Virus record (IMG/VR): IMGVR_UViG_3300037258_001195
Span: 1 to 64,000 of that record
DNA length: 64,000 nt
Reading direction: 5' to 3' (one strand)
Source of the DNA: a virus
Below, in pieces: positions 2,569-53,589 of this stretch. The position numbers and the translations under genes were made by a program. The notes under the pieces are model-generated. The model did not search any database, was not told the origin of the DNA, and was given only the letters and a program-made list of their open reading frames with translations. Every line of letters starts with the position of its first letter. Positions within the stretch are counted from its first letter, which is position 1.

Positions 2569-4410
2569 TCAAAGCCCGTTGATCACCGGGGCCAGCACCG
2601 CGGCCAGGTTTGCCGCCCCCGTCGCCGTCGGGTGCGTGCCGTCGCTGTAGAGCGAGGTGTTCGAGGCTGCGCTGTCCGGCCCCATCGTCGGATCGGCGGC
2701 AAAATCGCAGATCGCGTCGGCATGGATCCCGGAAACGATCGACCCGCCCGTCGTCCAAAGCCTGATTTCGGTATTTGCCGTGGCGCGCCACGCGCTGAAC
2801 CCGCTGACCGTCGAGGGCGTCAGCGTGCAGAGCACCAATTTCCACCCCGCCTTGCGATACCCGTCGCAGAGCGCGGCGAGGTCGGTCAGATAGGTCGGAC
2901 TTCCCTGATCGTCGTGTCCGATGAGCAGCGACAGGATGAATTTCCGCGATCCTGGATTGGGCGGGATACGGCCGTTGACCGCCGCCTGACGTGCCAGGCA
3001 GTCGGCCACGCCTGAGCCGGTGACGGCATTGTCGAACCCCTGGCAGACCGGACTGAACGACGCCGCGGCCAGAAGTGGGTAGAAAGTCGAGATTGTCGGG
3101 GCGACCGTGATGCTGTCGCCCTCGGCGACGTAGATCCTCTTTGGCGCAATGCTGTTCCCCGAGGCCCCGATGCGGGCCACAAGGGCGCCATAAGCCTGCC
3201 GGTATTCAGCGTCGGAAAGCGCCCGGTTCCACAAGGCGATCGCACCGATCTTGTAGTCGCTGAAGAGCGCGGAGGCGCCGTTATTGAGGAACCCGCAGAA
3301 GAAATCCTCGACCTTTTGCGACGGCAGCGCCACGGTCCGGCTAAACATCTTGAGGTCGTCAAGCCAGGCATCGCCGCCGCCCTGGCCGGCGTCGTAACGG
3401 AGCCCAAAGGCGCTCCAGCCCAGGTTGAGGAACGTGTCGTCCCACAGGCTGGAGCTGGTCCGCGGCGTGGTCGCCCCGCCGTTGTTCTGCGTGTACATGC
3501 TGTCGCCGCCGAAATACGAGAACGGACCGGCATTCTCGAACCCGACGATGAGCGGGGAGTTGTTCCCGAACCCCCACTCGTTTCCCGTATGGGCGCCCGC
3601 CGTCTTCGCGGCCAGCACGATCATCGTGGCCGACGACCAGCTCCCGTTCGACGCCGCGAATTGTGCGATGGAATAGCGGTTGGTGGCGTATTGGAGCGCG
3701 CCGGCGGTATAGGCCGGCAGCGAACTGTCATAGGCGGTTCGGCCGAGCAGCACTGCGCCGCTCAACGTGTCCGGCCCGAGATCGAGCGAACCAGGGTAGA
3801 CGCCGAAATCGCAGACCAAAAGATCGAGGGCCGGGCTCGCCGAGTCGGCCGTCCGGATGCCCGGCTGGCGCGCGCCGCTCCAACCCGCGAACGTCTTGGC
3901 GAACACCTGCCAGCTCGTCGTCGCGGCAGCGGTGTCCATCGACCCGGCGATATCCCCGAACCGAAACGACTGCGACGCGCCGGTGTTGCTCTTGATGGCG
4001 CAGCGGACCGTATAGGTCCCCGAGGGGAGACCACCCGAAAACACGCTGTACAAGTAGCCGTCGGTGTCGGCGTTGACCTGCAGACGGGATGCTTCCGTCA
4101 AACCGTCCGGTCCCACCGCGAAATTGTCGGTCGCAGTACAGCTGGTGCGGCCCCACAGGCTCGTGGCAAAGACGCGGCGGGGCGCGGAGATCAGGTTCTG
4201 CGGCACGGCGCCGCCGGCCGCCGCATTCGGCACGTGAGGGCGCGGCGCGGCCTGATATCGATCCATGTACCAAAGACCGACGAGGCCAGGGGCGGGAAAG
4301 CCCTGGGCCTTGCCGCTCAGCAGGATGGTCTGCAGCAAACCGGCCCGCGCCGCCCCGGAAAAGGCGGCCAGGGGCGCGGCCGCAAGCGCCGCGCGTCGCG
4401 TGATCTTCAT
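2569..4410 (-). CDS. Tat-signal fibre-like protein: carbohydrate-binding/LamG-like domains plus C-terminal SGNH/GDSL esterase
   Basis: MKITRRAALAAAPLAAFSGAARA signal; ALWNRALSDAE LamG-like end; GDSIT and DGTHP SGNH motifs. Confidence 0.8.
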   Translation of the reverse strand: MKITRRAALAAAPLAAFSGAARAGLLQTILLSGKAQGFPAPGLVGLWYMDRYQAAPRPHVPNAAAGGAVPQNLISAPRRVFATSLWGRTSCTATDNFAVGPDGLTEASRLQVNADTDGYLYSVFSGGLPSGTYTVRCAIKSNTGASQSFRFGDIAGSMDTAAATTSWQVFAKTFAGWSGARQPGIRTADSASPALDLLVCDFGVYPGSLDLGPDTLSGAVLLGRTAYDSSLPAYTAGALQYATNRYSIAQFAASNGSWSSATMIVLAAKTAGAHTGNEWGFGNNSPLIVGFENAGPFSYFGGDSMYTQNNGGATTPRTSSSLWDDTFLNLGWSAFGLRYDAGQGGGDAWLDDLKMFSRTVALPSQKVEDFFCGFLNNGASALFSDYKIGAIALWNRALSDAEYRQAYGALVARIGASGNSIAPKRIYVAEGDSITVAPTISTFYPLLAAASFSPVCQGFDNAVTGSGVADCLARQAAVNGRIPPNPGSRKFILSLLIGHDDQGSPTYLTDLAALCDGYRKAGWKLVLCTLTPSTVSGFSAWRATANTEIRLWTTGGSIVSGIHADAICDFAADPTMGPDSAASNTSLYSDGTHPTATGAANLAAVLAPVINGL

Positions 4411-5533: not shown

Positions 5534-6384
5534 CAGGGTGCCGTTCCGAGGTTGATGGAAACGCCGACCGCCGCGGTCGCTGTGCCGAGATCGGCCGAGC
5601 CGATCAGGCTTGTCGCAATCGTGCCCCAGTTCTCGCCGATGCCGGCCGCGAGCGTGGCGATGATCGGATTGCCGAGCGGGTTCGTGCCCGCCCCGCCCAG
5701 TGCGTAGTCATAGGCCGACACCGTGGCGAGGCTCTGCAATTCCTGGCCGACGAAATTGAACGCCGGCAGCTTCACGTAGATCGTCTGGCCGATAAAATTT
5801 GCCGGATAGCCGTAGTGGAATACCGCCGGGTCATTCGGCCCGAGCCGCCCGAACTGGGCCCCGCTCCCATGCGCGGCGATCGGCGTGCCATAGGCGCCCC
5901 GCCGCAGATAGGTAAGGCCATATTTATACGCAGCGGTCAGCGTCGCGGTCTCATAGGCCAGCAATTCGCCGTCGCAGAAGCACAGCGTCACCATGTTGTC
6001 GGCGTCCGCCACCGTGCCCGACAGCAGCTGCCCCTCGCTCTCGCTCAGGTCGACCGCGAGCGTGTGCGTCGTGTCGGGATCGGCGCCGGCGGGCAGCGCC
6101 GCCGTCAGAACGCCCTGTCGCCCGCCGCGATAGGCCGTGCCGGCGAAGGCATAGGTGTTGCCGTCGCTCGACACCCAGATCTGGCAGCCGCCCCAATTCG
6201 AACCGCCGGTCGCGAGGATCCACACCTCGTTGGCGCCGCCGGTGAGACCGGGCGGCGGCTCGAAGATGATCGGCGCGTTGGTGTCGCCCGGCGGCACGAA
6301 GGGGTCGAGCGCCGCCCCGGCGGTCGCCTGCTTCGGATAGGGCCTCGCGGTGCCGACTCCGATCGGCCTGATGGTTCCCGGCAT
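5533..6384 (-). CDS. Tail tip protein, C-terminal half (split gene)
   Basis: Aligns to C-terminal part of 30025-32388 (DTNAPIIFEP; ELLAYETATLTA; YVKLPAFN). Confidence 0.85.
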   Translation of the reverse strand: MPGTIRPIGVGTARPYPKQATAGAALDPFVPPGDTNAPIIFEPPPGLTGGANEVWILATGGSNWGGCQIWVSSDGNTYAFAGTAYRGGRQGVLTAALPAGADPDTTHTLAVDLSESEGQLLSGTVADADNMVTLCFCDGELLAYETATLTAAYKYGLTYLRRGAYGTPIAAHGSGAQFGRLGPNDPAVFHYGYPANFIGQTIYVKLPAFNFVGQELQSLATVSAYDYALGGAGTNPLGNPIIATLAAGIGENWGTIATSLIGSADLGTATAAVGVSINLGTAP

Positions 6385-14362: not shown

Positions 14363-15853
14363 TCAGCCGTTGCCGATATTGGTGATGACACCCATCGCAA
14401 ACGGGGCGTACACCGCCAGCACCTCCTCGGCATAGACGCCGACCTGGCGCTGCCGCGTCACCACCGGCCAGTCGATCTGGTAGTAGTCCTGCCGCGTCTT
14501 GACCTCGGCCACGTTGGGCACTTCGCTCGACTGGTACTGGATCGGCAGGTTCTCGGCCCAGCCGATGATCGTGCCCGGCGGAACGCGCGGGTGGATGCGG
14601 ATCGGGATGCGCAGCCCGCCGTTGAGCGCGAACGGGTTGAAATAGAACGACACCGCCCCAGCCGCGGCCAGATCATAGGCATTCCCATCCGCACTCACCT
14701 CATACCGCAGCAGCGGCGCCGACGCGTTCGACAGCACCTTGTCGGTGATGTTCTTCAGCTCCTGCACGTTGACGTACAGGACGGTCGGGCTCAGCTCGAA
14801 ATTGTTCCACATCGTCTGGAACATCGTGTCGATCTCGACGACCGAGCCACGCCCCGACGCAGTCAGCGGCGTGCCGGTCCCGGCGGTGCCGCTCGCCTGG
14901 GTCGCGATATAGGCGTTGGAGCCTGCCTTGAACGCGCTCGTCAACAGCCCGTCATAGGCATAGCTCGGGTTCGCCGAATTGTCGGCGCTGACCGCCGACT
15001 GCGCCTGCATGCTGCCGGCAAGCGGCGCCGAGAGCGCGGCGCTGTTGATCGTCGTGATCGCCTGCAGCGTCTCCGCCCCGGTCGACGTCCCGACATACCA
15101 CGCATAGGCGACGGCGCCCTGCAGCGCGGTGACGGTACAAAACAAGGTCTGCCCCGACGTCACCGCCTGGCTCGCCTCGGCGCTGATATTCGACGACCCG
15201 CCGGCGAGCGTATAGGAGTGACCGTCCGCCCCCGTGATCGGCTTTGTCGTCGCGACCCCGCCAGAGAGGCTCGAATTCTGGAAGCCTTCGAGCGTCAACC
15301 CCACGACCTTCACATAATAGGTCGTCGCCGGCAGGGTCCCGCCCGACCCCGAGGCCGACAGCACCGGCGTCGCCGGGGTGCCGAGCTGGAGCGACGCGTT
15401 GCCGCCGAGGATCGCCATTTCCTCCTTCAGCATCATCTTTTGCAGGAGCCGAAACGTCATCCGCGACTGGATGTCCTCAAACCCCCGGCCGGCGCTGATC
15501 GCCTCGTAGGTCGCCGCGTCCTCCTCGCCGATCGTCACAAACGTCGCCGATTTGGTCCCGGTCGTATATGACATCTGCGCCGAGCGCTGCCCCTCCGGGA
15601 CCCACCCCATCGCGTCATAGCCCGAGCCCACCAGCGCCGTCACCTGGCGCCAGTTCGTCGCCGTGCCCGTCCCGCCGCCGACCCGCGGAATGACATTTCG
15701 GATCGGTGTGACGAACGGGTACAAATTTTTCGCCGGCGCTTGCAAATCAAACGCGACGAGCCCCGTGCCCGTCGAGATCGTCTTGGCGATCCGGTCGTCG
15801 GGCGAGCGCAGCGCACCCTTGACCAGATCAAGCGTATCTTGTGTCGGATTCAT
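14363..15853 (-). CDS. Major capsid protein with internal FN3/Ig-like insertion
   Basis: Follows protease/scaffold; homologous to 47152-48807 (RQDYYQI.WP, GVYA.EV). Confidence 0.85.
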   Translation of the reverse strand: MNPTQDTLDLVKGALRSPDDRIAKTISTGTGLVAFDLQAPAKNLYPFVTPIRNVIPRVGGGTGTATNWRQVTALVGSGYDAMGWVPEGQRSAQMSYTTGTKSATFVTIGEEDAATYEAISAGRGFEDIQSRMTFRLLQKMMLKEEMAILGGNASLQLGTPATPVLSASGSGGTLPATTYYVKVVGLTLEGFQNSSLSGGVATTKPITGADGHSYTLAGGSSNISAEASQAVTSGQTLFCTVTALQGAVAYAWYVGTSTGAETLQAITTINSAALSAPLAGSMQAQSAVSADNSANPSYAYDGLLTSAFKAGSNAYIATQASGTAGTGTPLTASGRGSVVEIDTMFQTMWNNFELSPTVLYVNVQELKNITDKVLSNASAPLLRYEVSADGNAYDLAAAGAVSFYFNPFALNGGLRIPIRIHPRVPPGTIIGWAENLPIQYQSSEVPNVAEVKTRQDYYQIDWPVVTRQRQVGVYAEEVLAVYAPFAMGVITNIGNG

Positions 15854-15880
15854 CAAAAACTCCCTTTGGGAGGTGGCAAC

Positions 15881-16035: not shown

Positions 16036-17247
16036 CTACCGCATCGCCGGCCGGATCGGGTTCGCATGCGCCGCCTTGATCAGCGCCAGCGTCCGTTCCT
16101 CGTCGCTCATCCGTGACAGCGCCGTGACGACATCGTCGCCGTACCCGCCGCCGTCCCCGCGCTTCGAGATCCCGGCATGCCCGCGCCCAGCGGTCAGCGG
16201 CGGTAAGGGGGTCGCGGCAATGTCCTCGACCCGCTTCGCCAGCGCGTCGAGCCGCGGCACGATCTCACCCGCCAGCGCCTTCATCAGCTCGCCCGGCCGC
16301 ACGCCTTTCGCGCCGTCGTCACGCGCAGGCCCTTCGCCCCCGTCACCGCTCATCCCGCGGAGAAACCCGCACAACCATTCGAGATCTCCGATGATCTGCC
16401 CGATCCGCGTCACCTCGCCGCCGCCGTCCTTGCGCACCCCGGCACCCGCGGCCTTGCCGCCGACGCCATCCCCCGGCGGCCCCGCCGGGTCGATCTTGTC
16501 CTGCCACGCGGCGACGATCCGTGCCTTGATATGCGCGAGCTGCGCCTCGGTATAGCGATCGGTATTGTCGGGCTGGTGTATATAAGCCCAAGCGGCGCGG
16601 ACATGCCCTTCGGTGTTGAGCGGATACCGCTTCTCGCCGTCCGGCCGATACCCGGGATCGGCGAAATCGCCGTCCGCCTCGGCGGCGCCGTCATCGCCTC
16701 CGCCGCGCTTCTCGACGCAGCGCATCGCCTCGGCCTTTATCAGGTGACGATGCGCGGCGACGCCGCAATGCCAGATCTGCACGGGCGGGTTGGCACCCGC
16801 GGCCGCTTCGGCCATGTGTTGTCCTCCTTCGGCTTTCCAGCAATCGAACACCGCCTCGGGGTTGGCCGGGCGGTCGACCAGGCTGATCTCGGTGAGCTTG
16901 AGCCCGGTGATGACGGATCGGTCGGCCGGGTCGCGTTGCGTCACCCGCCCGCCGATCGAGTACCCTTTATAGACGCCGCCCGTCACCTTCTCCCAGGCGC
17001 GCGGGTCGATGATGCGGGCGCCGACATAAAGCCCCTTGTCGTCGACCCCCGCCTCCTCGGCGACACCGACCGCCGACAATTGATGCATCTCGCGGATATT
17101 CGCGAACCGCATGTAATCGTCGAGCGCCGCCGCCAGCGCATCGCGAGTAATCGTCTCGCCCTGGTCATCCTCGGCCGCGGTCGAGGCATAACCCCAAACC
17201 ATATGCTGTGCCGCCTCGACCTTTGCGAGCGGAGCGTAAAAGCGCAT
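16036..17247 (-). CDS. Prohead protease fused to DUF6582-like domain and scaffold
   Basis: NIREMH, YKGYSIGG, EISLVDRPANP protease motifs; FADPGY...KRYPL...HVRAAWAYI domain. Confidence 0.85.
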   Translation of the reverse strand: MRFYAPLAKVEAAQHMVWGYASTAAEDDQGETITRDALAAALDDYMRFANIREMHQLSAVGVAEEAGVDDKGLYVGARIIDPRAWEKVTGGVYKGYSIGGRVTQRDPADRSVITGLKLTEISLVDRPANPEAVFDCWKAEGGQHMAEAAAGANPPVQIWHCGVAAHRHLIKAEAMRCVEKRGGGDDGAAEADGDFADPGYRPDGEKRYPLNTEGHVRAAWAYIHQPDNTDRYTEAQLAHIKARIVAAWQDKIDPAGPPGDGVGGKAAGAGVRKDGGGEVTRIGQIIGDLEWLCGFLRGMSGDGGEGPARDDGAKGVRPGELMKALAGEIVPRLDALAKRVEDIAATPLPPLTAGRGHAGISKRGDGGGYGDDVVTALSRMSDEERTLALIKAAHANPIRPAMR

Positions 17248-17326
17248 TGCGCATCACCGTCTGGTTACAGGTGGGAGTCATTGTCGGTGCGGGCGGAACC
17301 CACTGATCGGCTTGACGGAGCCAGCA

Positions 17327-17366
17327 GCGCCTCGGCAAAGGCCTGGTATTTCGATCCGCCCGGCGC
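17327..17366. repeat. 40-bp direct repeat, copy 2 (orphan fragment of portal gene)
   Basis: 39/40 identical to 18700-18739. Confidence 0.9.
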
Positions 17367-17398
17367 AGGCGCCCCCGCCTGCCGATCCGGCCCCGGGC

Positions 17399-17938
17399 CT
17401 AGCGGTTGCCCTGCGCCGCGGTCGCACGACGGCGTAGTTCCTTCGCAACCTCACTTTTAGTGCCTGCCGGCGCGCCGAGGAGGCCTGGTGTCCAGTGGTC
17501 GTTGGGAAGCGTGTCACAATCGGCCAACGCGGCCGCCTCATTGCCCAGCCGGTAATGGCAGTCGGCGCGAAACAACGGACCGAAGCCGCCCTGCCATTGC
17601 GCCGGGTCCAGGCGTTCACAGTGGTCATACGCCTCAATGGCTTCTTGGTAGCGACCCAGGTCCTGAAGGAGACGGCCTCGCGCTTCGTACGGGGCAGGAC
17701 GATCCTCAAGCTCTAGCGATTTCTCGAGGTCGGCCAAAGCCAGTTCGGGCTGGCCCACCTCGGACCATGCCTGGTGCCGGACAAAATATGCTCCGGCATC
17801 TCGCGGACGCTGCTTAACGAACTCGTTGGTCAGAGTCAGAAACTTCTGCGGCTCGGTCCGCAATAGGTAAAACTGACGATCAATGTCGTCATGGGTAATT
17901 TCATCCGCCATAGCGACTGCCTGCCTCGGTTGCTGCAT
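17399..17938 (-). CDS. TPR-repeat protein (candidate immunity/partner of the portal C-terminal domain)
   Basis: ALADLEKSLEL, RGRLLQDLGRYQEAIEAYD TPR motifs; ATG overlaps TAA of upstream frame (TAATG); alternative start 17911. Confidence 0.82.
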   Translation of the reverse strand: MQQPRQAVAMADEITHDDIDRQFYLLRTEPQKFLTLTNEFVKQRPRDAGAYFVRHQAWSEVGQPELALADLEKSLELEDRPAPYEARGRLLQDLGRYQEAIEAYDHCERLDPAQWQGGFGPLFRADCHYRLGNEAAALADCDTLPNDHWTPGLLGAPAGTKSEVAKELRRRATAAQGNR

Positions 17939-18157
17939 TAGACCTCGTTGCCGCCGCACCGTTCGGAGACCTGTCCCAGAAGGCAGCTCAGCATATCCTT
18001 CCCGGGTCCAGAATACCCAGGGCGGAACTTTCCTCATCTCTCATTCTGCTGCAATATTAGTACGCGAATGCCCACTCTCCGGCGCAGTCCGGGTGGTCTG
18101 GAAACGGGTTTACCGGCAGGGATGGTGGCCGCCCTGTTCCGGTCGTCCATTCCCCCC
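17938..18157 (-). pseudogene. Decayed Cys-rich C-terminal extension of the portal
   Basis: Reconstructs as GGEWTT...DCAGEWAFAY*YCSRMRDE/KFRPGYSGPGKDMLSCLLGQVSERCGGNEV*, with a frameshift in G6 (18152-18157), a TAA at 18057-18059 and a second frameshift near 18032. Confidence 0.65.
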
Positions 18158-19627
18158 TTGAGAATTGCCAGCGGAAACCCGCGGCTCGTCCGGGTTGTAT
18201 TTGCGCATTGAAACCGAGCCCGATCGCCGTTCCGAAGCGTGGCGTTCGCAAGCCTGCCTGGATGTACCTGTCGCGAGCCGTGCCAACACTTCTGGCGCGG
18301 AACCAGCACCGCCAAGCGCCACCGCCCCCTGCGTCCCGTACACCATCGGCCGCTCGCCGCCCGGCACCGGGTCGAGCCCCAAGAGGTCCCGCGCCTCGTT
18401 GATCGCGTAGATGCCGCTGCGGACATAGGTGTCGATGATCTTGGCTTCTTGCGCCGCGTCGGCCGGCCGTCCCTCCGCCCACACGAATTCCAACTCCGGC
18501 TCGCCCAGCCGATCCTGGATCACGTGGTCGGCGAGCCGCTTGACCCACCCCATCAGCGGAGCCATGCCCTCGTCGAGCGCGGCCTGCTGCGAGGTTTCGG
18601 CGGTCGCGCGGTTGATCTGCTTTGTAAACGCGGTCGGCGGCAGCGAAAACGCGAAGCACACGATCCGCGCCAGCCACTCGTCAAACTCGTCCTTGTACGG
18701 CGCCTCGGCAAAGGCCTGGTATTTCGACCCGCCCGGCGCCCACACAAGCCGCGTCCGCGACGCCGTGTTGCCGGCGAGCACGCTGTCGAACCATTCCTGG
18801 AACTGCCGGATTTGCTCGGCATTCCACCCATCCGGCGCGCTCAGCAGCCCCGGCGGAACATTCCCCTCGGTGAAATGCTGGAGCTGCATGACCTGGCGCC
18901 GCAGCGCGATGTTGACGGTCATGATGATCTGTTCGACCGGCCCGAACCCATAGGCCTTATGCGGCCGCGGGTTGCGCGGGAGGTAGAGCAGGTCGTCGCC
19001 GGTCAGCAATTTCCACGGCCGCCCGCGGATCACCTGCTCGAAACCCGGCGCCGGCGGACGCGGCCGCCGCCCGGTATCGTCGATCAACAGCTTGATCGTC
19101 GCCCCATCCACCGCGTCGAGCCCGATCAGCTCGCCGGCCCGGTTGCGCCGCATCTCCAGCGCCGGCGCGTCGAGCACCAGCAAGTCTTCGAGCACCTCGC
19201 GCAGCCAGGTCGCGAACGGCCGCTCGCCATCCGGCCGCCGCCAGAACCCTGCGACCTTCGCCACCCGGCCCGGATCGACCCGCGCGCCCCTCACCCCCTT
19301 GATCTTCCAGCCGAGCTTTTCGATCTGGTCCTTGCGCGTCTCGATCGCGAGCCGCGTGATGTCGTGCCCGTCGGCGAGCGCCCGCAATTCCGCGAACGAC
19401 ACCGCCTCATAGGCGCGCGGCGTATAGATCGTGTTGGCGCCGACCGGAAAGTCCCAGACCCGGAGCGCCTCCTCGTCGATCGGCGCCAGCGGATAGCCCG
19501 GCGAGAAAATCCCTAGATCGGGCTGGAACACGTCCCGGAACTGTGCTTCGAGCCCCTGCTGCCCCCAGGTATAGGATGGGGTGAGGCCCGGGGTCAGTGC
19601 TGTGCGCTTACCACCTTGAGGGGGCAT
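18110..19627 (-). CDS. Portal protein
   Basis: DGATIKLLIDDTGRRP, YGFGPVEQI, INEAR..LGL.P; homolog at 53590-56073. Confidence 0.9.
   Translation of the reverse strand: MPPQGGKRTALTPGLTPSYTWGQQGLEAQFRDVFQPDLGIFSPGYPLAPIDEEALRVWDFPVGANTIYTPRAYEAVSFAELRALADGHDITRLAIETRKDQIEKLGWKIKGVRGARVDPGRVAKVAGFWRRPDGERPFATWLREVLEDLLVLDAPALEMRRNRAGELIGLDAVDGATIKLLIDDTGRRPRPPAPGFEQVIRGRPWKLLTGDDLLYLPRNPRPHKAYGFGPVEQIIMTVNIALRRQVMQLQHFTEGNVPPGLLSAPDGWNAEQIRQFQEWFDSVLAGNTASRTRLVWAPGGSKYQAFAEAPYKDEFDEWLARIVCFAFSLPPTAFTKQINRATAETSQQAALDEGMAPLMGWVKRLADHVIQDRLGEPELEFVWAEGRPADAAQEAKIIDTYVRSGIYAINEARDLLGLDPVPGGERPMVYGTQGAVALGGAGSAPEVLARLATGTSRQACERHASERRSGSVSMRKYNPDEPRVSAGNSQGGNGRPEQGGHHPCR
18700..18739. repeat. 40-bp direct repeat, copy 1 (within portal, encodes APGGSKYQAFAEA)
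   Basis: Matches 17327-17366. Confidence 0.9.
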
Positions 19628-22209
19628 CAGAAGCTGCTCCATGCCGCCCGCTTCCAACTATTAGGAGCGGTGCAGGCGTAAAGAAAGTTGCTGTCGAACT
19701 CGAGCTGCCCGGTCTGGCACGCCGCCGAACTCGTCGACGGCGTGCCGCCCGCCGGAAACATCCCGTTCGCCGACGCAGTCGCCGGCGTCACCGCTGTGAC
19801 CCGGAAATTCGCGCCATCGAAGGTCAGCCGCACATACTCGTAATTCTGCCCGTACAACGTCAGCGCGCTTTGAGCTCCACGCGAGCCGGGAACCAAGATT
19901 TGTCCGCCGCCGCTGCCGTTCACCTGCACGGTCAGGGTCTTGCCGTTATCGGTGACGAACCCCATCGACCACCCCGCGGCGATCGCGCTCGTCGCCGGCA
20001 GCGTGACGGTCAGGCTGGAGATCGGCGTGTTGTAGTCCGACATCACCGTCCCGCAATCGGCGAGCGCGGCGGCATAGGTGCTGACCGACGGGAACACCCA
20101 TCTTTCAAGGCACGTCCCGCCGGAGACGCCGATCGAGGCTGCCGTCACCGGCGTCACTTGCATGACCCGGAAATTCGACCCGTCGAACTGCAGCACTGCC
20201 TCCTCGTAATCCCCCGCAGCCAGCATCAGCGACGTCGCGCTGCCGCCGCTGCCGGGATAGACGATCTTGCCGCCATTGGTCGGATTGACCTGAAAATTGG
20301 CGGTCTTGCCGTTGTCATTGACGATCGCGATCGTCCAACCGGGGTTGATCGCACCCGTCTCCGGCAAGGTGACGCTCAGATACCCCAGCGGGCTGTTGAA
20401 GGCCGATATCGCCGTGCCATTATCGGCGACCGTCGTCGCATAGGCGCTGACCGACGGAAAACTCCACCGATCGATCCCGCCGGTCCCGGCCAGGCCGAGC
20501 TGCTGCGCCGTCGCCGGTGTCATCTGCTCGACCCGGAAATTGGCGCCGCCATCATATTGCAAGGTCACGTATTCGTACTGGTCACCGGCCAGCGTCAGCG
20601 ACGTCCGCGCCGCCGCGTTGACCTGCGGGTACAGGATATGTCCGCCATTCGTGTCGTTGACGTTGACCGTCAGGCCCTTGCCCTGGTCGGTCGCAAACCC
20701 CATTGACCACCCCGACGGCAGCGAGGTCGTCGGCGGCAAGGTCACGCTCAGCCCCGCGCTGGTGTTATAGCTCGACACCACATTCCCGTTATCGCCGAGC
20801 CGCGCCGCATACCCGCTCGTCGATGGAAACAGCCAGTTCCCCGGCCAGTCCCGGCTTTCGAGCCCATTCGTCGCCAGCGTATTGCGGGTCCCGAACACGA
20901 CCCGGAAATTATTCCCGTCCGACTCAAGCTGCATATACTCGTAATCCCCCGGCCCCAGCGTCACCGCGCTCAGCGACTTGCCGCCGGCGAGGATCGCTCC
21001 ACTCGGCGCCGTGATCGTCATCCCCTTGCCGTTATCGGTAGCGAACCCCATCCACCATCCGGCCCCGACCGCGCTCGGCGACGGCAAATTCACCGCCAGC
21101 GTCCCGCCGGTCGCGTTGTAGGACGACACCGCGGTGCCGCTATCGACCGCCGACGCGGTAAAGCTCGCCGCCGTCGGAAACTGCCACTGCGCCCAGTTGC
21201 CTGTGCCATTCACCTCGATCCCGGCCGACTGCCCGGCCCGGTTGACGACCGCGCCGCCGTAATTCGGGTTCATCAAGAGGTTGTGCGTGCTCGCCGTCGC
21301 GTTGACCGCGGTGACGCAATCGAAATACGGCGACACGAAGCTGTTCTGCCCGTCATGGGCAAAGCTGATGCCGAGGCAGATCGGCGACGCCTCCATGTCA
21401 AAGGCGAAGATCGTGTTCGAAAAATCGTATCCGTTTTCCAAGAGCAGCGCCGTCCCCCCGGTCCCATTGGCCGAACCGGCCCCCGAGATCCGCGAAAACT
21501 GCACCTGTTCGAGCGCCATCCCGGCGGCACCGCCCGCCGTGTCGGCGACCGCGAATATATCGCTGTCCAACACGTAATTGAGCTGCAACGCCCCCGCTCC
21601 AGCCGCCGTGCTCGCGTTGTTGACGATCAGGTGATCGAGCCGGATCGAGTTATGCGCGTCGGAGAAATCGGTCTTGCCCACCCTCACCGCATAACCCGGC
21701 GTGTCGGCATTGACGAACAGCGTCCCCTCCTGCCGGAAATAAAAGCACCCGGTCGGACTGAGACTCGTCCCGCCCGAGCACTCAACCTGCAACACCGGCC
21801 CCGATCCAACCGACCGCCCGTCGATCGTCGCCCCTTCGGACAACAGCCGAAACCCGTTCCCGGGCTGCGCGGCATAGTCGATCGTGACCTCGCTCGTCAC
21901 CTTGTAAGTCCCGGCCGGCACATGCACCGGCCAGTTGTGAGTGACTGCCGTCTCGATCGTCGCCTGGATCGCCGCCGTATCGTCGTGGCTGTCGTCACCG
22001 AGAGCTCCGTTGCAGCGCACGTCGATCCACGGCCGCCCCGAGCACATCAGCACGTCGCCGTTCATCGTCGCCGTGCCGCTCGTCGCCAATGTCGAGAAGT
22101 TCCCCGGCGATTGCGCGAGCGCGCCCCAGCCGGACGCGACGCACGCCGCAAACGCGGCCGGCGCGATCGCCCGATCGACCCACCGCATCGCCGCCATTTC
22201 CGTCACCAT
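19627..22209 (-). CDS. Signal-peptide-like N-terminus, pectate-lyase-3-type beta-helix and four ~120-aa knob-like repeats (fibre/spike)
   Basis: DVRCNGALGDDSHDDTAAIQ...VPAGTY; four W.FP...GW...DNGK...YE...DG.NFRV repeats; exact start uncertain. Confidence 0.8.
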   Translation of the reverse strand: MVTEMAAMRWVDRAIAPAAFAACVASGWGALAQSPGNFSTLATSGTATMNGDVLMCSGRPWIDVRCNGALGDDSHDDTAAIQATIETAVTHNWPVHVPAGTYKVTSEVTIDYAAQPGNGFRLLSEGATIDGRSVGSGPVLQVECSGGTSLSPTGCFYFRQEGTLFVNADTPGYAVRVGKTDFSDAHNSIRLDHLIVNNASTAAGAGALQLNYVLDSDIFAVADTAGGAAGMALEQVQFSRISGAGSANGTGGTALLLENGYDFSNTIFAFDMEASPICLGISFAHDGQNSFVSPYFDCVTAVNATASTHNLLMNPNYGGAVVNRAGQSAGIEVNGTGNWAQWQFPTAASFTASAVDSGTAVSSYNATGGTLAVNLPSPSAVGAGWWMGFATDNGKGMTITAPSGAILAGGKSLSAVTLGPGDYEYMQLESDGNNFRVVFGTRNTLATNGLESRDWPGNWLFPSTSGYAARLGDNGNVVSSYNTSAGLSVTLPPTTSLPSGWSMGFATDQGKGLTVNVNDTNGGHILYPQVNAAARTSLTLAGDQYEYVTLQYDGGANFRVEQMTPATAQQLGLAGTGGIDRWSFPSVSAYATTVADNGTAISAFNSPLGYLSVTLPETGAINPGWTIAIVNDNGKTANFQVNPTNGGKIVYPGSGGSATSLMLAAGDYEEAVLQFDGSNFRVMQVTPVTAASIGVSGGTCLERWVFPSVSTYAAALADCGTVMSDYNTPISSLTVTLPATSAIAAGWSMGFVTDNGKTLTVQVNGSGGGQILVPGSRGAQSALTLYGQNYEYVRLTFDGANFRVTAVTPATASANGMFPAGGTPSTSSAACQTGQLEFDSNFLYACTAPNSWKRAAWSSF

Positions 22210-22646
22210 CGCCGCGCGGCAAAGGCCTGGCCGGTCGTCGCCCCGAAGAGGCTCACCGCCCCGGCCGGCTTATACCCCGACGGTGTCGCGAAAATCCCGC
22301 CGTTGGCCAAAACCTGGATGCTCGCGCCATCCGCCGCCGCGGTGCCGGCATCCGACACCCACAGCACCGCGGAGGAATTATTCTGCACGAGGAACCCGTT
22401 CGCCGGCGCGATCCCGCCGAAGAGGGTCTGCGCGCTGCCCCCGGTCGCGACCGTGCCGCTGCCGTCGCTCGCCGCCGCGCCGGCCACGTTGATCACCGGC
22501 AGCGGGGTCGCCGGCCCCACCGGCATCGCCACGCCCTGCGCGTTGGTCGAGGCCGGCGCGTGCACCGGCACCAGATTCCCGTTCCCGTCCACCGCGGTCG
22601 ACAGCGGCTGCACGGTCGTATTCGCGTCCTTCACCAAAAGCGTCAT
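22203..22646 (-). CDS. Beta-rich virion accessory (head-fibre/decoration-like)
   Basis: PVGPATPLPV motif; coupled to TerL stop. Confidence 0.7.
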   Translation of the reverse strand: MTLLVKDANTTVQPLSTAVDGNGNLVPVHAPASTNAQGVAMPVGPATPLPVINVAGAAASDGSGTVATGGSAQTLFGGIAPANGFLVQNNSSAVLWVSDAGTAAADGASIQVLANGGIFATPSGYKPAGAVSLFGATTGQAFAARRW

Positions 22647-23986
22647 GACTTGTCACCTCCGCTCGCCGCGTCTCGGCGATAGAGTTCGAAAATTCCGGCG
22701 CCGCTCATCGGCGACACCAAAAGCTCGCTGAGGCCCCACACCAGCGCATCGACCCGGTCGGGCGAGTACCCGGCCGCGTGGCGGTCGAAATCGCTGGTGA
22801 AGGCGCACATCTGGTCTTCGAGCAGCGGGAACGCGCCGACATGATGCACCCGCCCCTGCTCGTAGAGCGCCGCGACCGGCTCGGCCCGCGCGACCTTGCC
22901 GCGCGCCGCCCGCACCGCGGTAAAGGCGACGTTCGGGTCGACGACGCGCAAGGTCGCCTCGACCATCTCGCCGCCATTGTTCACCTCGGCGACGATCCGG
23001 TCCGCGCCATGCGTCCGCCACGCCGTCAGCGCGACTTTCGCCCATTCCGGCGGCGCATAACGGCCCGACAGATCGCCAAGCACATAGCCGTGCTCGCGCC
23101 CGTCCGGCCCCGCCGCCTTGCCGACAATGACGATCCCGGTCTCGTCCGATGCGCCGCCGCTCGTCGCGGCCGGGTCGATCGCGATGACGAGCCGATCGAG
23201 ATCGGGCTCGATGCCGATCCGCGCCGCCTCGATCATCGCATGGTTCCAGAGCGCCCCCGGCACGTCCTCGAGCAATTCGGCATCGAGCTCCTGCCGCCCC
23301 AGGCGCGTGCCCTCATACCGGCGCACGATCGCGTCGATAAAGGCCGCCGCCAAATTCGCGCGGTTCTCCCGCGTTTTACCGCGCGTCACCGCTACGGTCG
23401 GGTCGACGACGAGCGCCCTGACCAGCCTTGTCGGGCGGGGCGTCGTCGTCACCACCACGCGCGGATCATCGCCAAGCCTGAGACCGAACATCAGCATGTC
23501 CCACGCTTCCGGATACCGCCACGCCGCCAGCTCGTCGCACCAGGCCAGATCGTGCTGCGGCCCCCGAAGCCGCTGCGGCTCATCCGCCGAAAAAATCGTC
23601 GCGATCGCCCCGTTCGACCAGGTCAGTCGCCGTTTCGAGGGCTCATAGACCGGCCGGTCCTTGCGCGGCGACACCGCCAAGACCCCGCTTTCTCCCTCGA
23701 TCATCACATCGCGCGCATCGGCCGCGGTCGGTGCGACAAGGGCGACCCGCCGCGCCTTGCCCGCCGCGACCCGCGCCCGCACGAACTCGGCGCCGGTGCG
23801 CGTCTTGCCAAATCCGCGCCCGGCCAACAGCAGCCACACCCGCCAGTCGCCCGGCGGCGGCCCTTGCTCGTCGCGCCTCCAGAATTTCCAGTCAGTTACC
23901 AGCGCCTGTCTTTCCGCCAGCGTCATTTGCCGCAGCAGCCGCGTCCTCATCCAGCTGGGCAGCGAGGCGAGCCAGACGGCGTTCAA
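22643..23986 (-). CDS. terL: Terminase large subunit, RcGTA g2-like
   Basis: AGRGFGKTRTGAE Walker A; LRGPQHDLAWCDE Walker B; AIDPA and SPDRVDA nuclease motifs; TTG start inferred. Confidence 0.93.
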   Translation of the reverse strand: MNAVWLASLPSWMRTRLLRQMTLAERQALVTDWKFWRRDEQGPPPGDWRVWLLLAGRGFGKTRTGAEFVRARVAAGKARRVALVAPTAADARDVMIEGESGVLAVSPRKDRPVYEPSKRRLTWSNGAIATIFSADEPQRLRGPQHDLAWCDELAAWRYPEAWDMLMFGLRLGDDPRVVVTTTPRPTRLVRALVVDPTVAVTRGKTRENRANLAAAFIDAIVRRYEGTRLGRQELDAELLEDVPGALWNHAMIEAARIGIEPDLDRLVIAIDPAATSGGASDETGIVIVGKAAGPDGREHGYVLGDLSGRYAPPEWAKVALTAWRTHGADRIVAEVNNGGEMVEATLRVVDPNVAFTAVRAARGKVARAEPVAALYEQGRVHHVGAFPLLEDQMCAFTSDFDRHAAGYSPDRVDALVWGLSELLVSPMSGAGIFELYRRDAASGGDKS

Positions 23987-24299
23987 TTTCCTCAAGCGGG
24001 TCCTCGCCGGGATCGGGCTCCGGCTCGTCCTCGTGACGCCGCGGTGCCAGGGGAAAGAGGCCGAAATGCCGGGCCAGCGCATCGAGCGCGGCCTTTTTGT
24101 CATAGAGCTTCACGCGCACCCCGCCCTCGCCGCTTCCGGTCCTGCTGATCTCCGAGATCGCCGCGCGTTCGCTTTCGGACATCTCGGCGAGCGGCTTGAG
24201 CTGCAGCCGGCCCGTGGCGTCCCAGGTCACGATATGGGTGATATCGGCAAGGGCGATGCGCGCATATTCGTTGAATGCCCGCGGGGCATGGTATGCCAA
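23892..24299 (-). CDS. terS: Terminase small subunit, N-terminally short (no HTH)
   Basis: EYARIALADI...VRVKLYDKKAALDALARHFGLF oligomerisation region; overlaps TerL start. Confidence 0.75.
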   Translation of the reverse strand: MAYHAPRAFNEYARIALADITHIVTWDATGRLQLKPLAEMSESERAAISEISRTGSGEGGVRVKLYDKKAALDALARHFGLFPLAPRRHEDEPEPDPGEDPLEEIERRLARLAAQLDEDAAAAANDAGGKTGAGN

Positions 24300-48843: not shown

Positions 48844-51165
48844 TTACGCCCGCTTACCGGCGGCGGCGCCACGAAAACTCGGATCAAAGATCGACCGTCC
48901 ATTCGTGCCGTTGAGGATGTAGGTTCCGGCAACTTTTCGCCGCGCACCTTCATCATTCTCAAGCTGCATCGGAGAAACGCCCGCATCCTGGATCGCCTTC
49001 ATAAGCGGGTCGCTACCCGCTCCGTCGGCGCCATTTCCGTTTCCGATGACTTTCGTCATATCAAACGCATACGGTGCACGACTGGACGTGCTGCGGGCCA
49101 GAAGATTATTCTGGGCTTCGAGCCGCGCGTTTTCGATGAAGAGCTGAGCCGTCGCGGCATCGATTCGGCCATCCTTGCCAACCGCCTTTGCCAACTTGCC
49201 CCAATCCTTGTCAAGCGCCTGGATCGGCGGCTCGCGGCTACCACCTCGCGTCCCGGGTCCAGCAGTTGCAAGATCGCTCGGCGATAGGTCAGTGACGCCA
49301 GGGGGAACTCGATAGAATTCATTCCCGTGCGTTGGCTCCTGTTCCTTCTCACCAGATCGTCCCGCCATCTTTTTCAACTGTTCCCGGGCAGCCTTGGTAA
49401 AGGTGGAGACCTTCGACAGTTCTGAATATGCCTTATTCAGCTTATCCATCGCACCAGCCGAGTCGAATTCACCATCTTCCTCGTCGGGCTTCGCCTTACC
49501 CTTCGCCGCCTTCTCCATCTTGGAGATATAATAGGCTTTGATGAGCTTGGAGCACTCCTCGATCGCACCGGCAGCTTCCTTGCGAGCCTTCGACGCTTTC
49601 TTCATATTATCGCCCGCAGACTTCATCCGCATCGCCCGAGTTGGCTGAGCCGCCCGCTTGATTACGTCGAGAATCGCGTCCTGCAGAGGATCGCCCCCGC
49701 TAGTCTTCCTGAGATCGTCGCTCGTCGCTGCCATTTCGAAATCCTCACCTAAGAATTGCATGAGATATTGGTCATCGATGTCAGAAAGATCAACTGCCTC
49801 CTGACCTTCATGAGTTGCTTTCTGACCGATGACCGAAGCCAGAATCTGCGCCGCGGAACCTAGGTCTTTCGCCAGGCCCTTGTCCTTCATATCGCCGCCT
49901 TCACCCTTCGCCTCACGAAGAAGACTTCGTTGCGCCGAGCGAATCGAGTCGAAACAGAATGCCAACGACCCAGCAACTTCCATTCGCTTCGAAAGCGGTG
50001 CGGCGAAACTATCTTGTCCGCCTTCCTGAGACTGTCCCAACGTCAGCCACGACGGGAGTACGGGAGGCGCCGCTCCGTCGTCCCTCTCAGCGGCCTTTAG
50101 GGTCAGGAAGGACGGCACTACCGCCGAGCCCGAAGACTTAGTAAGAGATTTAAGAATTACTTTCTCATTAGCGAGTTTTGAGATTGCCGATGCGCGAGCG
50201 GCTTTCTTAGCTTCCTTTGCTGCGGCTTTCTTGCCCCATTTCTCGGGCAACATATCAGTCGCCCCGAGCGCGGCAGCGCGAGCTTTGATGTGGCTCTTTG
50301 CCTTCCCTTTGTCCTTGGCACGGCCAAAAGCCGACACAGCATCCCCGAGAGCTTCTTTGTCGGGAATCGGATAACTCCCATCGGGAAGGGCAATCCCTTT
50401 CCCCGCATATTCCTTTCGTTGATCGGACGAGTACTCCCGTTTCGAAATATCTTCGCCGCATGTCGGACAGCCCGCAACTCCATGAACGGAGCAAATTTTC
50501 GTATTCGCTGCGTCTAGCGGATTGCTAGTCTGCGCGTCAAACGGCGGCTTTCCATCTGCCTTCGCTGTTTTCTTTGGCTTTATCTTCTCTTGTACGTCAC
50601 GAACTAATTCGTCCTGACTCGGGGCCTTGGTGAGAAATTCACTGACCATCGCGAAGCTATTGGCAAGTTTCTGAACACGAGTCTTCTTGGCCTTCCGAAA
50701 CGCCACTCCCGGCTCAAACGCCAATGCTCCCGTCTTGTCCATCTTTGCCATATTAAACCGACACTCTGGATTCGCGGGCCGGTCGACAATGGAGATCTCG
50801 GTCATCGAAAGTCGGGTAATCTTATTCGGATCGTTGGGATCTTTGTCGAGTTTCCGCCCCCCGATCGAAAATCCCTTATAGACCTTATCGACAACTTTCT
50901 TCCAGGCGTCGTCGTCGGAAATCTTCGCGGTCAACCAAAGTCCCTTTCGGTCAACATGCGCCTCTTCGGCAGTTCCAACGGCTTGGAGCCGATGCATCTC
51001 CCGAATATTACCATACTGCATATAATCCGGGAGAGCTGACTTAATCGCCTCAAGTGCGATCGTTTCTCCATCTGAGTCCTTTGCCTCGGTCGAAGCGTAG
51101 CCTGAGATTGTCCTCTTAGCTTCGTCGACCTTAGTGATCGGCAAAAAGAAATTAAGGTCGCTCAT
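48844..51165 (-). CDS. Prohead protease + DUF6582-like domain + long scaffold
   Basis: NIREMH, YKGFSIGG, EISIVDRPANP; ALPDGSYPIPD...HIKARA..LG. Confidence 0.87.
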   Translation of the reverse strand: MSDLNFFLPITKVDEAKRTISGYASTEAKDSDGETIALEAIKSALPDYMQYGNIREMHRLQAVGTAEEAHVDRKGLWLTAKISDDDAWKKVVDKVYKGFSIGGRKLDKDPNDPNKITRLSMTEISIVDRPANPECRFNMAKMDKTGALAFEPGVAFRKAKKTRVQKLANSFAMVSEFLTKAPSQDELVRDVQEKIKPKKTAKADGKPPFDAQTSNPLDAANTKICSVHGVAGCPTCGEDISKREYSSDQRKEYAGKGIALPDGSYPIPDKEALGDAVSAFGRAKDKGKAKSHIKARAAALGATDMLPEKWGKKAAAKEAKKAARASAISKLANEKVILKSLTKSSGSAVVPSFLTLKAAERDDGAAPPVLPSWLTLGQSQEGGQDSFAAPLSKRMEVAGSLAFCFDSIRSAQRSLLREAKGEGGDMKDKGLAKDLGSAAQILASVIGQKATHEGQEAVDLSDIDDQYLMQFLGEDFEMAATSDDLRKTSGGDPLQDAILDVIKRAAQPTRAMRMKSAGDNMKKASKARKEAAGAIEECSKLIKAYYISKMEKAAKGKAKPDEEDGEFDSAGAMDKLNKAYSELSKVSTFTKAAREQLKKMAGRSGEKEQEPTHGNEFYRVPPGVTDLSPSDLATAGPGTRGGSREPPIQALDKDWGKLAKAVGKDGRIDAATAQLFIENARLEAQNNLLARSTSSRAPYAFDMTKVIGNGNGADGAGSDPLMKAIQDAGVSPMQLENDEGARRKVAGTYILNGTNGRSIFDPSFRGAAAGKRA

Positions 51166-51211
51166 CTTAGTCTCCGACAAATTAATCTCAGACTACGCAA
51201 CGCGCGGCGAC

Positions 51212-51454
51212 CTAATTCGTAAAGCTCGCTTGTGAGCCAACCTGGACATTCGGTCGGAGACCCGTAACAAGCATGGTCATCAAGGTGTTGAGAAGAATCT
51301 GCCCATCCGCGCGAAGCGCCCCCGAGGACGTAAAAGTCAAACCGCCCCCAGCAATTTGCGGGGCCGCAGCGGCGACCGTAAGCGTATCGCCCGCCTGATC
51401 GGTAATAACATAGGTCGTAACGTTGTTCGAATAGGTCGACGTGATCGCAGCCAT
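51212..51454 (-). CDS. Small beta-rich hypothetical virion protein
   Basis: GAGGAG RBS; within head operon. Confidence 0.65.
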   Translation of the reverse strand: MAAITSTYSNNVTTYVITDQAGDTLTVAAAAPQIAGGGLTFTSSGALRADGQILLNTLMTMLVTGLRPNVQVGSQASFTN

Positions 51455-52849
51455 TTAAATTTCTCCTCGATTCAGCCGACTATCGGCCAGTTTACGAACG
51501 TATTTGATAACCCGAGCTACGGAATCAGTCCACGTCAAATCTCGCCCCTGCGTGAAGATCCTAAAATCTTCATACCACGGCGTTCCGACGGGTGAATCCC
51601 ACCATCGCCAGCAACGAGTGTACGGTCCGAGCATTACGACTGGCTTACCCATCGCTCCCGCGAGATGCACCACTGCGCTATCGACAGAAATAACCAGGTC
51701 CAATTCCTGAATAAATCGGGCGGTGTCGTAGAAGTCCTCAATGGCGTGCATAGAGTCGAGCATAAGCGCTTCTGCGCCAAGGGCAAGGACCTCTTTAGAT
51801 TCTTCGCCTTTTTGCAGTGAAATGACCTGAACGCCAGGAATTTCCATTAATGGAAGAAACATTGAGAGCGGAATAACTCGACGCCGAAGGCTCAATGTTT
51901 TCCCGTGATCGCCAGAAGACCAGCAAAGACCAATTTTAAATTTACCAGGAATTCGGCGAATAAGGGGCTCTTTTACAGTCAAGTATGGTTCCGACGAAAT
52001 ATCCTTCGGCATAATTTCCGAATGCCGAATCATACTCAGCATGGGTGTGTGAAAGTCAAAGTTCTTCGCATTCGCCTCAGGTGGAAGACTTTCACAATCC
52101 CAGACCTGAATATCCGGAAAGTTCTCCGCGAACAAACGGACCAAAGGTGCTGCGGTAGCTAAAACGATGCTCCGGGTCCGCGTAGAGAGCTTCGCCAAAA
52201 ATCGAACGAACATCAGACTATCGCCATAGCCTTGTTCGTGATGGACTAAGATGCGTTTTTCGTCTAGATTCTCTCCCTGCCATTCAGGGATGCCAAGGTT
52301 CCAGACGGGATTCTTATACAATTCCTCCCACCGAATCTCATAAAGTGGAAGACCCTGGTCGAGGCGCCCTTGCGACATAATCGTTAAAGCGTGATCGTTC
52401 TTGGTTGCGTAGGCGTCGTAACCCAAAGCTCGCGCGCGCACCATCGCGTCTTCGGCGTCAGCGAACCTATTCTGACGATACAGCAACGTCCCGTAAGTAT
52501 GCCAAATTGCCGGATCACTTGGCTTAAGCCGCCTAGCTTCTCGCAATTGCTCCCGGGCGCCATCAATCCGACCAAGCGCAACCAAATTAATCGCCAGGTT
52601 GTTCCGCGCTTGAAAGTCCTTTGGATCAATTGCAACGGCGCGCTGCCCGACGGTAATTCCCATCTCATGCTTCTGGAGCTTGTAGAGGATTCCCGCTAGA
52701 TTCGACAAAACAACCGAATTATTCGGATCAATAAGAAGTGCTCCCATGTAATGGACGCGAGCGATTTCAAATTCGCCAGCCATTTGATGCTGGCTACCTT
52801 TGAGATTCAGCCCGTAAATTCGACGAATCGAATTATCATCCAACGGCAT
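51455..52849 (-). CDS. TPR-repeat + GT-B (family 9-like) glycosyltransferase
   Basis: N-terminal TPRs; EQGYGD; DLVISVDSAVVHLAGAMGKP; WRW...PWY. Confidence 0.9.
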   Translation of the reverse strand: MPLDDNSIRRIYGLNLKGSQHQMAGEFEIARVHYMGALLIDPNNSVVLSNLAGILYKLQKHEMGITVGQRAVAIDPKDFQARNNLAINLVALGRIDGAREQLREARRLKPSDPAIWHTYGTLLYRQNRFADAEDAMVRARALGYDAYATKNDHALTIMSQGRLDQGLPLYEIRWEELYKNPVWNLGIPEWQGENLDEKRILVHHEQGYGDSLMFVRFLAKLSTRTRSIVLATAAPLVRLFAENFPDIQVWDCESLPPEANAKNFDFHTPMLSMIRHSEIMPKDISSEPYLTVKEPLIRRIPGKFKIGLCWSSGDHGKTLSLRRRVIPLSMFLPLMEIPGVQVISLQKGEESKEVLALGAEALMLDSMHAIEDFYDTARFIQELDLVISVDSAVVHLAGAMGKPVVMLGPYTRCWRWWDSPVGTPWYEDFRIFTQGRDLTWTDSVARVIKYVRKLADSRLNRGEI

Positions 52850-52876
52850 AGGAGCAATTCCCTGCGAGGACTCTTC

Positions 52877-53575
52877 TTACGACCCAGTCAACGGCGCGTT
52901 GAATGAGTACATGAAGCCATAAGTATGGGAGGCGTTCGGCGCACTCGACGGCGTAATGGTTGCCAACGTTACCGCCGATGCGGTGCCAACCGTTTCATCC
53001 CCAGCATTCGTCGTCTCTTTAATAAAGACAACATCTTTTGCACCGGGATTCACTGGAACCGAAATTGCGGCAGTCGAATCGATCTGAATGCCCGGCGAGG
53101 TGCCACCGACAAGACCTGCAACGGTCGGCGCGGAGAGATGCACGATACCTTTCGAGGTAAACGTCGTTGCGGTCCCGCTTGCCGGAGCGGCAAGAGAGAA
53201 CACATCAACTTGGGACGTGCCATCATTGGCGAGATATGGAATCGAGATCGTGCCGCCTGTTACGGCAGACGTCCCCGCAGCAACAACAACGGCACCTTGC
53301 CGCGGAACGTCTGGTTGCGCCGCAACCGAAAGCGTGCCATTCGCAAGCGATGTCGAGCCGACGAATTTCCCGGCCGCCGCAGCAACAACTACGGGAGTCA
53401 TGCCGTAGTTGAAGACTTGTGCAACGAGAAGTTCCGCCCCAGCAGCTAAGAGCGCAGAAATATCTCGCGAATCAACATTCGCCGTCCCGTCGGCCCCAGC
53501 AACATACGTCCCGTAATTGCCGACAATTTGACCGCCCAAGCTCCCAATAAACATTTTCACAGTCGACGAAGCCAT
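52877..53575 (-). CDS. Putative head decoration/fibre protein
   Basis: Ser/Thr/Ala/Gly-rich beta protein after the portal; AGGAG RBS. Confidence 0.7.
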   Translation of the reverse strand: MASSTVKMFIGSLGGQIVGNYGTYVAGADGTANVDSRDISALLAAGAELLVAQVFNYGMTPVVVAAAAGKFVGSTSLANGTLSVAAQPDVPRQGAVVVAAGTSAVTGGTISIPYLANDGTSQVDVFSLAAPASGTATTFTSKGIVHLSAPTVAGLVGGTSPGIQIDSTAAISVPVNPGAKDVVFIKETTNAGDETVGTASAVTLATITPSSAPNASHTYGFMYSFNAPLTGS

Positions 53576-53589
53576 AACGTTCTCCTAAT

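Follow-up and report, generated by a model that had tools for sequence, protein, structure and literature searches.

A prophage portal gene with a decayed 3′ cargo cassette and an intact partner gene

What was once attached to the end of the portal protein of this provirus, and what is the intact gene left behind it? The question is raised by IMG/VR record IMGVR_UViG_3300037258_001195, of which we analysed positions 1 to 64,000 (hereafter, the window); the parent record of 92,987 nt is classed as a provirus, with a CheckV completeness of 100. Behind the portal gene lie the remains of a cysteine-rich domain, referred to below as T3, and then an intact gene for a 170-aa protein with tetratricopeptide repeats (TPR). 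We interpret the region as a decayed cargo cassette on the 3′ end of the prophage portal gene together with its intact partner gene; cargo and partner are probably an effector and its immunity protein. The minus strand is the coding strand for every gene of the portal stretch, and the features on which the argument rests are as follows.

18110-19657, minus strand: portal gene, 515 aa as it stands (PF04860, E-value 7e-25; phrog_2662 portal, E-value 2.5e-74)
18700-18739, minus strand: 40-nt repeat, resident copy inside the portal gene
18152-18202, minus strand: conserved linker K-Y-N-P-D-E-P-R-V-S-A-G-N-S-Q-G-G, ending in the G6 run, where the G-G-E-W frame is lost
18152-18157, minus strand: G6 homopolymer (C6 on the plus strand), the first frame loss
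17938-18151, minus strand: pseudogenised Cys-rich cargo domain T3, delimited by alignments to intact homologues
17399-17911, minus strand: TPR partner gene, 170 aa, intact (Pfam TPR families above cut-off)
17327-17366, minus strand: 40-nt repeat, second copy (portal codons ~306-318), downstream of the TPR gene

The portal 3′ end and the T3 remnant

Translation of the portal gene (18110-19657) bore out a claim of the first-pass annotation, made from the sequence alone, that the portal ends in this linker and loses its frame at G6: the product ends KYNPDEPRVSAGNSQGG, followed by 13 out-of-frame residues and TAA. The portal core (~445 aa) is intact, and the final 13 codons are out-of-frame read-through past G6. 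In the −1 frame at G6 the sequence reads GGEW, as the same annotation had it, and then runs into Cys-rich sequence.

It had also been proposed that a Cys-rich domain can be rebuilt downstream across one stop and one more frameshift, and this reconstruction holds. Uninterrupted T3 stands behind the same linker in portals P0013 (629 aa) and P0215/L162, and at the DNA level it is intact in viral contigs L162 and L163 and in metagenome contig L164; in tblastn the tails of P0013 and P0215 were 85-87% identical to the window over their last 31-34 residues. Since intact homologues exist, the reconstruction reflects a genuine domain and did not arise by chance. In the window it ends ...CGGNEV, with the original stop TAA at 17938-17940.

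Compared with L164, the closest cassette relative, the window carries three lesions: the frame loss at G6 (18152-18157), a substitution that turns AAA in L164 into TAA at 18057-18059, and the deletion of one A between 18035 and 18034. The Pro-rich spacer of ~50-65 aa that separates the linker from T3 in L162 and L164 is also missing from the window. With three lesions the T3 copy is a pseudogene, and mending G6 alone gives no whole domain; the copy is an inert relic. Because the T3 frame is lost, the portal of the window is made as a core-only protein, as in most relatives.

The TPR gene has not decayed. Its product matched TPR_2 (36.7 bits, cut-off 27), TPR_1 (35.6, cut-off 27.8) and TPR_8 (33.7, cut-off 25.7) in Pfam; gene call P0125 (170 aa) is 100% identical to it, and the protein of L164 is 82% identical. 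According to the first-pass annotation the TAA of the Cys-rich domain overlaps the ATG of this gene. An in-frame ATG at 17936-17938 does overlap the TAA, but it lies 27 nt upstream of the conserved TPR start and is in frame with the TPR gene only through a 19-nt insertion, the equivalent TGATG of L164 being out of frame. The conserved start is the ATG at 17909-17911, which is common to the homologues (aligned for L162 and L164) and is used by P0125. The TPR gene is tightly linked to the T3 tail, without overlap.

The region is lower in GC than its flanks, as had been noticed earlier: 0.555-0.605 over 17700-18199 against 0.65-0.70. GC at third codon positions is 0.64 in the TPR open reading frame (ORF) against 0.82-0.88 in neighbouring genes. 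No promoter-like sites were found in 17200-18300, and the single terminator-like site there corresponds to chance level.

Beyond the TPR gene, the 40-nt segment at 17327-17366 is a direct repeat, 98% identical to 18700-18739 within the portal gene and 100% identical to the portal allele of L083. Among the compared loci with a recognisable copy, the window alone has two copies. The second copy may be all that is left of a portal 3′ cassette that was displaced, or else a scar of recombination.

Exchangeable tails on portals and on chromosomal carriers

The portal has 3628 homologues, mainly from Stellaceae and other alphaproteobacterial metagenome-assembled genomes (MAGs), the nearest being 84-92% identical. 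We surveyed the tails of the 120 nearest portal clusters, defining as core-only those of 470 aa or less: 88 were core-only, 19 had the full linker motif and 11 more had a partial or variant linker. In Stellaceae-type Alphaproteobacteria and their viral contigs, exchangeable C-terminal domains are attached to the portal core through the motif ..NPDEPRVPAG..GGQW.., so that the statement of the first-pass annotation that this linker precedes variable domains proved right for this portal family. Portal cores that are 65-92% identical carry unrelated tails, numbered T1 to T9 apart from those named by their domain. The tails and the genes found directly downstream of them are listed below.

T1 tail: second Cys-rich type; partner, an ORF of 129-138 aa (L074, L008, L019 and L105; L003/L082 with frameshifted T1)
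T2 tail: third Cys-rich type; partner, an ORF of 75 aa (L083, L072, L008 and L105)
T3 tail: the Cys-rich type of the window; partner, the TPR gene
T4 tail: 200 aa, lysozyme-like
T5 and T7 tails: further types behind the linker
T9 tail: partner, a DUF7336 protein (L024, twice)
Ribonuclease tail, barnase-type: PF00545, E-value 3e-4, 21.7 bits, under the cut-off of 24
DPBB_1 tail: lytic transglycosylase, E-value 9e-15
NERD tail: weak match

The expectation that homologous portals would have variable C-termini, each with a distinct downstream gene, was thus realised, each tail type having its own gene. No match for T1, T2, the 129-aa ORF or the 75-aa ORF was found in Pfam, PHROGs or NCBIfam. Across 126 related loci, portal stop and protease start are separated by anything from 5 nt to ~5.6 kb, which identifies the junction as a variable slot.

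Partner genes also occur without their tails (L162/L163, L004 and L072). The gene order in L162 and L163 is portal-T3, TPR gene, 75-aa ORF, 129-aa ORF and protease, and we take it to mean that partner genes of missing tails were retained as orphans. The combination seen in the window, a decayed cargo with a retained partner, had been read from this one locus by the first-pass annotation; it recurs in L003/L082, where T1 is frameshifted, and in L004/L084, where a deletion at the linker has removed the tail but the 129-aa-type partner ORF is kept. Orphan portal 3′ fragments were present in seven of the 126 related loci (L008, L024, L072, L103, L105, L135 and L138). Each of these has one or two extra fragments downstream, every one of which reads on past the linker into a further tail, and L024 is a clean three-unit array.

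Three further observations concern the portal relatives. In L163 an in-frame stop at 937-939 cuts the portal core into 245 aa and 394 aa, with the T3 tail and TPR gene intact. In L083 a 259-aa protein with DUF1835 and DUF3658 (5589-6365) follows the T2 tail and its 75-aa partner. Distant portals (L061-L070, L123-L125 and L143-L153; 40-66% identical) have long C-terminal regions ending in a motif of H-P-N-C-R-C type, and judging by that motif they look like portal-MuF fusions.

The linker is not confined to portals. Of 244 genomes from the order to which G002 belongs, 71 contain a chromosomal carrier family consisting of an N-domain and the same linker. A genome can have as many as nine copies, and their open frames measure 100-866 aa; the unpublished genome G038 entered this tally only, with no locus read from it. 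The carrier N-domain had no match in Pfam, PHROGs or NCBIfam. At the C-termini of carriers Pfam recognised Tox-REase-5 (30.7 and 43.1 bits, cut-off 25) and CDI_toxin_EC869_like (68.5 bits, cut-off 27); other ends, with H-H motif termini, resemble HNH-type nucleases by eye. Portal-type cassettes T3, T4, T5, T7 and DPBB also occur on carriers, recognised by eye from their C-termini rather than aligned. Structural look-alikes of the carrier in the Atlas belong to clusters with AHH, EC869-like and glucosaminidase domains, at TM-scores of 0.42-0.45 that make them a lead only; the toxin-domain ends suggested by this lead were confirmed independently through the C-termini of the genome carriers. At the carrier loci that were read (L251-L279, G045 and G058, all from genomes of the same order) no secretion or delivery system was evident.

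T3 and the TPR gene travel together well beyond portals. The TPR protein has 90 homologues of ~170 aa each, and a metagenome scan with the TPR alignment yielded 80 further loci, 40-82% identical. Linkage was counted wherever 260 nt or more of sequence preceded the TPR gene, which applied to 70 loci: 47 have an intact T3 whose end lies 4-39 nt ahead of the TPR start, 14 have a partial T3, and in nine none was detectable. The coupling of the Cys-rich domain to a TPR partner, proposed earlier for the window, therefore extends to the 61 of 70 loci in which T3 or its remnant lies directly upstream, while about a third of the 70 resemble the window in having the TPR gene but no complete T3. At nearly every locus where one of the two was found, the other accompanies it at least in part. 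The majority of proteins that carry T3 are not portals but chains of 230-350 aa in which the N-domain is followed by the linker (or its variant KHPRWP...GG.F), then by a spacer rich in Pro, and finally by T3. A full HMMER search gave 141 T3 cluster representatives, in which T3 is C-terminal in all but three T3-TPR fusions. A degenerate DNA pattern of T3 matched only three viral contigs.

In a confident AlphaFold model (pLDDT 84) T3, a domain of ~60 aa, is a helical hairpin of 50 residues, with two helices and four near-invariant cysteines, two per helix region. The twin-Cys arrangement in the model suggests stabilisation by disulfides or a metal. For the TPR protein we considered, and rejected, membership in the LcrH/SycD class II type III secretion chaperones: TIGR02552 scored 24.3 bits against a cut-off of 104.8, which amounts to generic TPR likeness.

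Readings of the pair and related systems

On comparison of these loci we see an architecture of carrier, linker, cassette and partner, cassettes shared between carriers, orphan arrays, and decay of the cassette in the window. Judged from sequence, the architecture is of the polymorphic toxin-immunity type: of the properties by which polymorphic toxins are defined (Zhang et al. 2012), those that can be read from sequence, namely variable C-termini, toxin folds, a cognate downstream gene and orphan cassettes, are present in the family, the recognised toxin fold being found on carriers with the same linker and not in T3 itself. That the same slot elsewhere holds polymorphic-toxin domains is the strongest argument for T3 being such an effector.

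The crown formed by the portal C-terminus faces the interior of the capsid. T4 internal proteins and Alt enter proheads by virtue of a targeting sequence, and the prohead protease then sets them free; they offer a possible model for freeing capsid-internal cargo and ejecting it with DNA. By analogy with portal structure, MuF toxins and T4 internal proteins we infer that a T3 effector would be carried within the capsid, attached to the portal crown, and would reach a recipient cell together with the DNA, probably once cleaved near the linker. In the producer the TPR protein would bind and neutralise T3 in the manner of an immunity protein, thereby shielding the lysogen. Cassettes would be swapped when the linker and the 3′ part of the portal gene recombine, and the 40-nt portal fragment past the TPR gene may be a scar of such an exchange.

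To our knowledge, phage capsid-borne toxins have so far been known through MuF proteins. The closest precedent is the MuF polymorphic toxins of temperate phages (Zhang et al. 2012, PMC3482391; Jamet et al. 2017, PMC5576092; Bxa/Apk2, PMC11699363), with which the present family shares a carrier from the head module, a variable C-terminal cargo, a small specific gene directly downstream, a prophage location and presumed capsid delivery. Unlike MuF toxins, the carrier here is the portal itself (the window portal and ten relatives had only Phage_portal in Pfam and no MuF domain), the linker is common to non-phage chromosomal carriers, and orphan fragments of the carrier 3′ end are present; Jamet et al. 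(PMC5576092) draw on portal genes solely for their position next to muf.

Polyvalent proteins and portal-effector fusions, e.g. the BcepF1 portal-InPase fusion (Iyer et al. 2017, PMC5512222), likewise join a portal core to an effector domain for which packaging and injection are presumed, and the second portal of the window is itself such a portal-InPase fusion. The portal-effector architecture as defined for polyvalent proteins is seen in the relatives, with RNase-like, DPBB or other tails, and in the second portal, the first portal of the window being truncated. Polyvalent fusions differ from the present family in that they are described as fixed architectures directed against host defences, with no cognate partners, cassette exchange or orphan arrays.

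The third related group is Rhs and contact-dependent inhibition (CDI) loci with orphan modules of a C-terminal toxin (CT) and its immunity gene (Poole et al. 2011, cited in PMC5576092; Zhang et al. 2012, PMC3482391). These also have a variable CT after a conserved junction motif, followed by an immunity gene; displaced CT-immunity modules with a stub of the conserved region pile up downstream, and EC869-like and Tox-REase domains are common to both. In the present case delivery would be via a virus particle and not a type V or type VI secretion system, and the stub derives from a structural gene that is essential.

In the literature searched we found no account in which portals act as polymorphic carriers accompanied by cognate partners and arrays of orphans, and none of the linker motif. 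The comparison suggests that the portal, an essential 12-fold structure, can serve as a carrier of exchangeable cargo, complete with orphan arrays like those of Rhs/CDI loci. A junction motif and cassettes common to portals and chromosomal carriers provide a testable system for finding out if antibacterial effectors are delivered by virus particles, and the four-Cys helical hairpin with its 170-aa TPR protein is a new, widespread pair.

Several observations weigh against the effector-immunity reading. T3 has no enzymatic motif, and Pfam, PHROGs and NCBIfam give no family for it; comparison of its model with solved folds gave no usable match (best Foldseek E-value 4, best VIA Z 3.8). The TPR protein, at 170 aa, exceeds typical immunity proteins in size. 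Three representatives (P0234, P0247 and P0281) are single polypeptides of carrier, linker, T3 and TPR protein, although they may be read-through gene calls. Most T3-TPR pairs sit in ordinary chromosomal surroundings: Pfam found no phage genes among 10 neighbouring ORFs checked at five T3-TPR loci, these being ordinary chromosomal ORFs or ORFs of no family. The DPBB and lysozyme-like tails are cell-wall enzymes and not toxins, so the slot carries mixed cargo. Two of the three T3 lesions in the window are single-base deletions that could be assembly errors.

The main rival draws on several of these points: T3 and the TPR protein would be a non-toxic working pair, that is, an effector (an anti-defence factor, an aid to DNA ejection or a regulator) with its chaperone or adaptor, the TPR gene being kept for its own use. 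Natural T3-TPR fusions fit a working complex better than a toxin joined to its antidote, and the small size of T3, its lack of enzymatic features or a known toxin fold, the chaperone-like size and repeat type of the TPR protein, its weak LcrH/SycD match, and the many T3-TPR pairs in plain chromosomal contexts all point the same way. We nevertheless consider this explanation unlikely, if a serious one: T3 shares its slot, linker and carriers with Tox-REase-5, EC869-like and HNH-like nuclease domains, the partner genes of other tails are kept as orphans after tail loss in the way of immunity genes, and the LcrH match falls far under its cut-off.

A wider extension of the effector-immunity reading is more speculative still, and we find it doubtful. 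The PRVPAG-GGQW linker might be an address or processing tag common to portals and chromosomal carriers, by which virus heads of these Alphaproteobacteria, or heads resembling gene transfer agents (GTAs), deliver polymorphic effectors encoded by phage and host alike, among them the tiny, Cys-rich, non-enzymatic T1, T2 and T3 as a new effector class, each neutralised by a dedicated binder; in some phages a −1 ribosomal frameshift, for which L244 is a candidate, might set the share of cargo-bearing portal subunits. The idea in the first-pass annotation of a GTA-like particle with a role in kin discrimination or competition finds no support here, the record being classed as a provirus.

Could the T3 tail be intact in the organism and its breaks be errors of assembly or sequencing at short homopolymers? 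Single-nucleotide deletions in homopolymers are typical errors of long-read consensus sequences, one of the two deletions here falls within a G run and the other within a short run of A, and many of the related MAGs come from long-read projects, to judge by project titles. We hold the decay to be real because the third lesion is a substitution and the whole Pro-rich spacer is missing; several independent relatives, moreover, are broken in other ways. An artefact is very improbable on these grounds.

The first-pass annotation had described the cargo as switched off at the G6 tract. This fails as a description of a switch: with a stop and a further frame change downstream, a shift at G6 would not yield a whole domain. 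G6 is the only C/G run of at least six within 17001-19000, and the −1 shift there gives exactly the conserved G-G-E-W; but there is no slippery heptamer at G6 (the zero-frame A-GGG-GGG-AAT does not conform to X XXY YYZ), RNA downstream of it shows no gain in stability over shuffled sequence (z −0.42), and relatives are mostly plain in-frame fusions, so that a reversible G6 switch, by phase variation or a programmed −1 frameshift setting the number of cargo-bearing portal subunits, is contradicted for the window copy and barely credible.

The relative L244 deserves separate mention as regards frameshifting. In this distant relative (reverse strand, ~2960-3440 of the reversed locus) the portal, 49% identical, has an ORF that ends at C CCT TTT TGA. 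Linker and T3 can be read onward from there in the −1 frame, and a TPR gene comes next; about 6 nt past the heptamer begins a GC-rich hairpin of 12 bp (z −1.96). From these signals L244 is a candidate for a programmed −1 frameshift, which would yield a minority portal-cargo fusion.

Neighbouring genes and the second head module

The remaining genes around the portal of the window are as follows.

22643-24103, minus strand: large terminase
between the large terminase and the 860-aa protein, minus strand: ORF of 147 aa
19627-22209, minus strand: 860-aa pectate-lyase/rhamnogalacturonase-like protein (N-terminal match, Pfam)
16036-17247, minus strand: prohead protease S78 with DUF6582 extension (Pfam, PHROGs)
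14363-15856, minus strand: 497-aa protein with a match to phrog_13692

The S78 protease is the next conserved head gene and bounds the variable slot at its far edge. The 860-aa protein sits in the interval between terminase and portal, an odd location for a spike-like gene; comparable large genes occupy the portal-protease gap in L086 and L024.

The same record contains a second head module at 48844-56109, on the minus strand. In addition to its portal it encodes a 232-aa ORF, a 464-aa protein with TPR and GT9-like parts (51455-52849) and a 778-aa S78 protease. We considered the TPR-GT9 protein as specific kin of the 170-aa TPR protein and rejected it, the match (E-value 0.013) being of generic likeness. 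The second portal (53590-56109) is an 839-aa portal-InPase fusion (PF18823, E-value 1e-43) and is 36% identical to the first.

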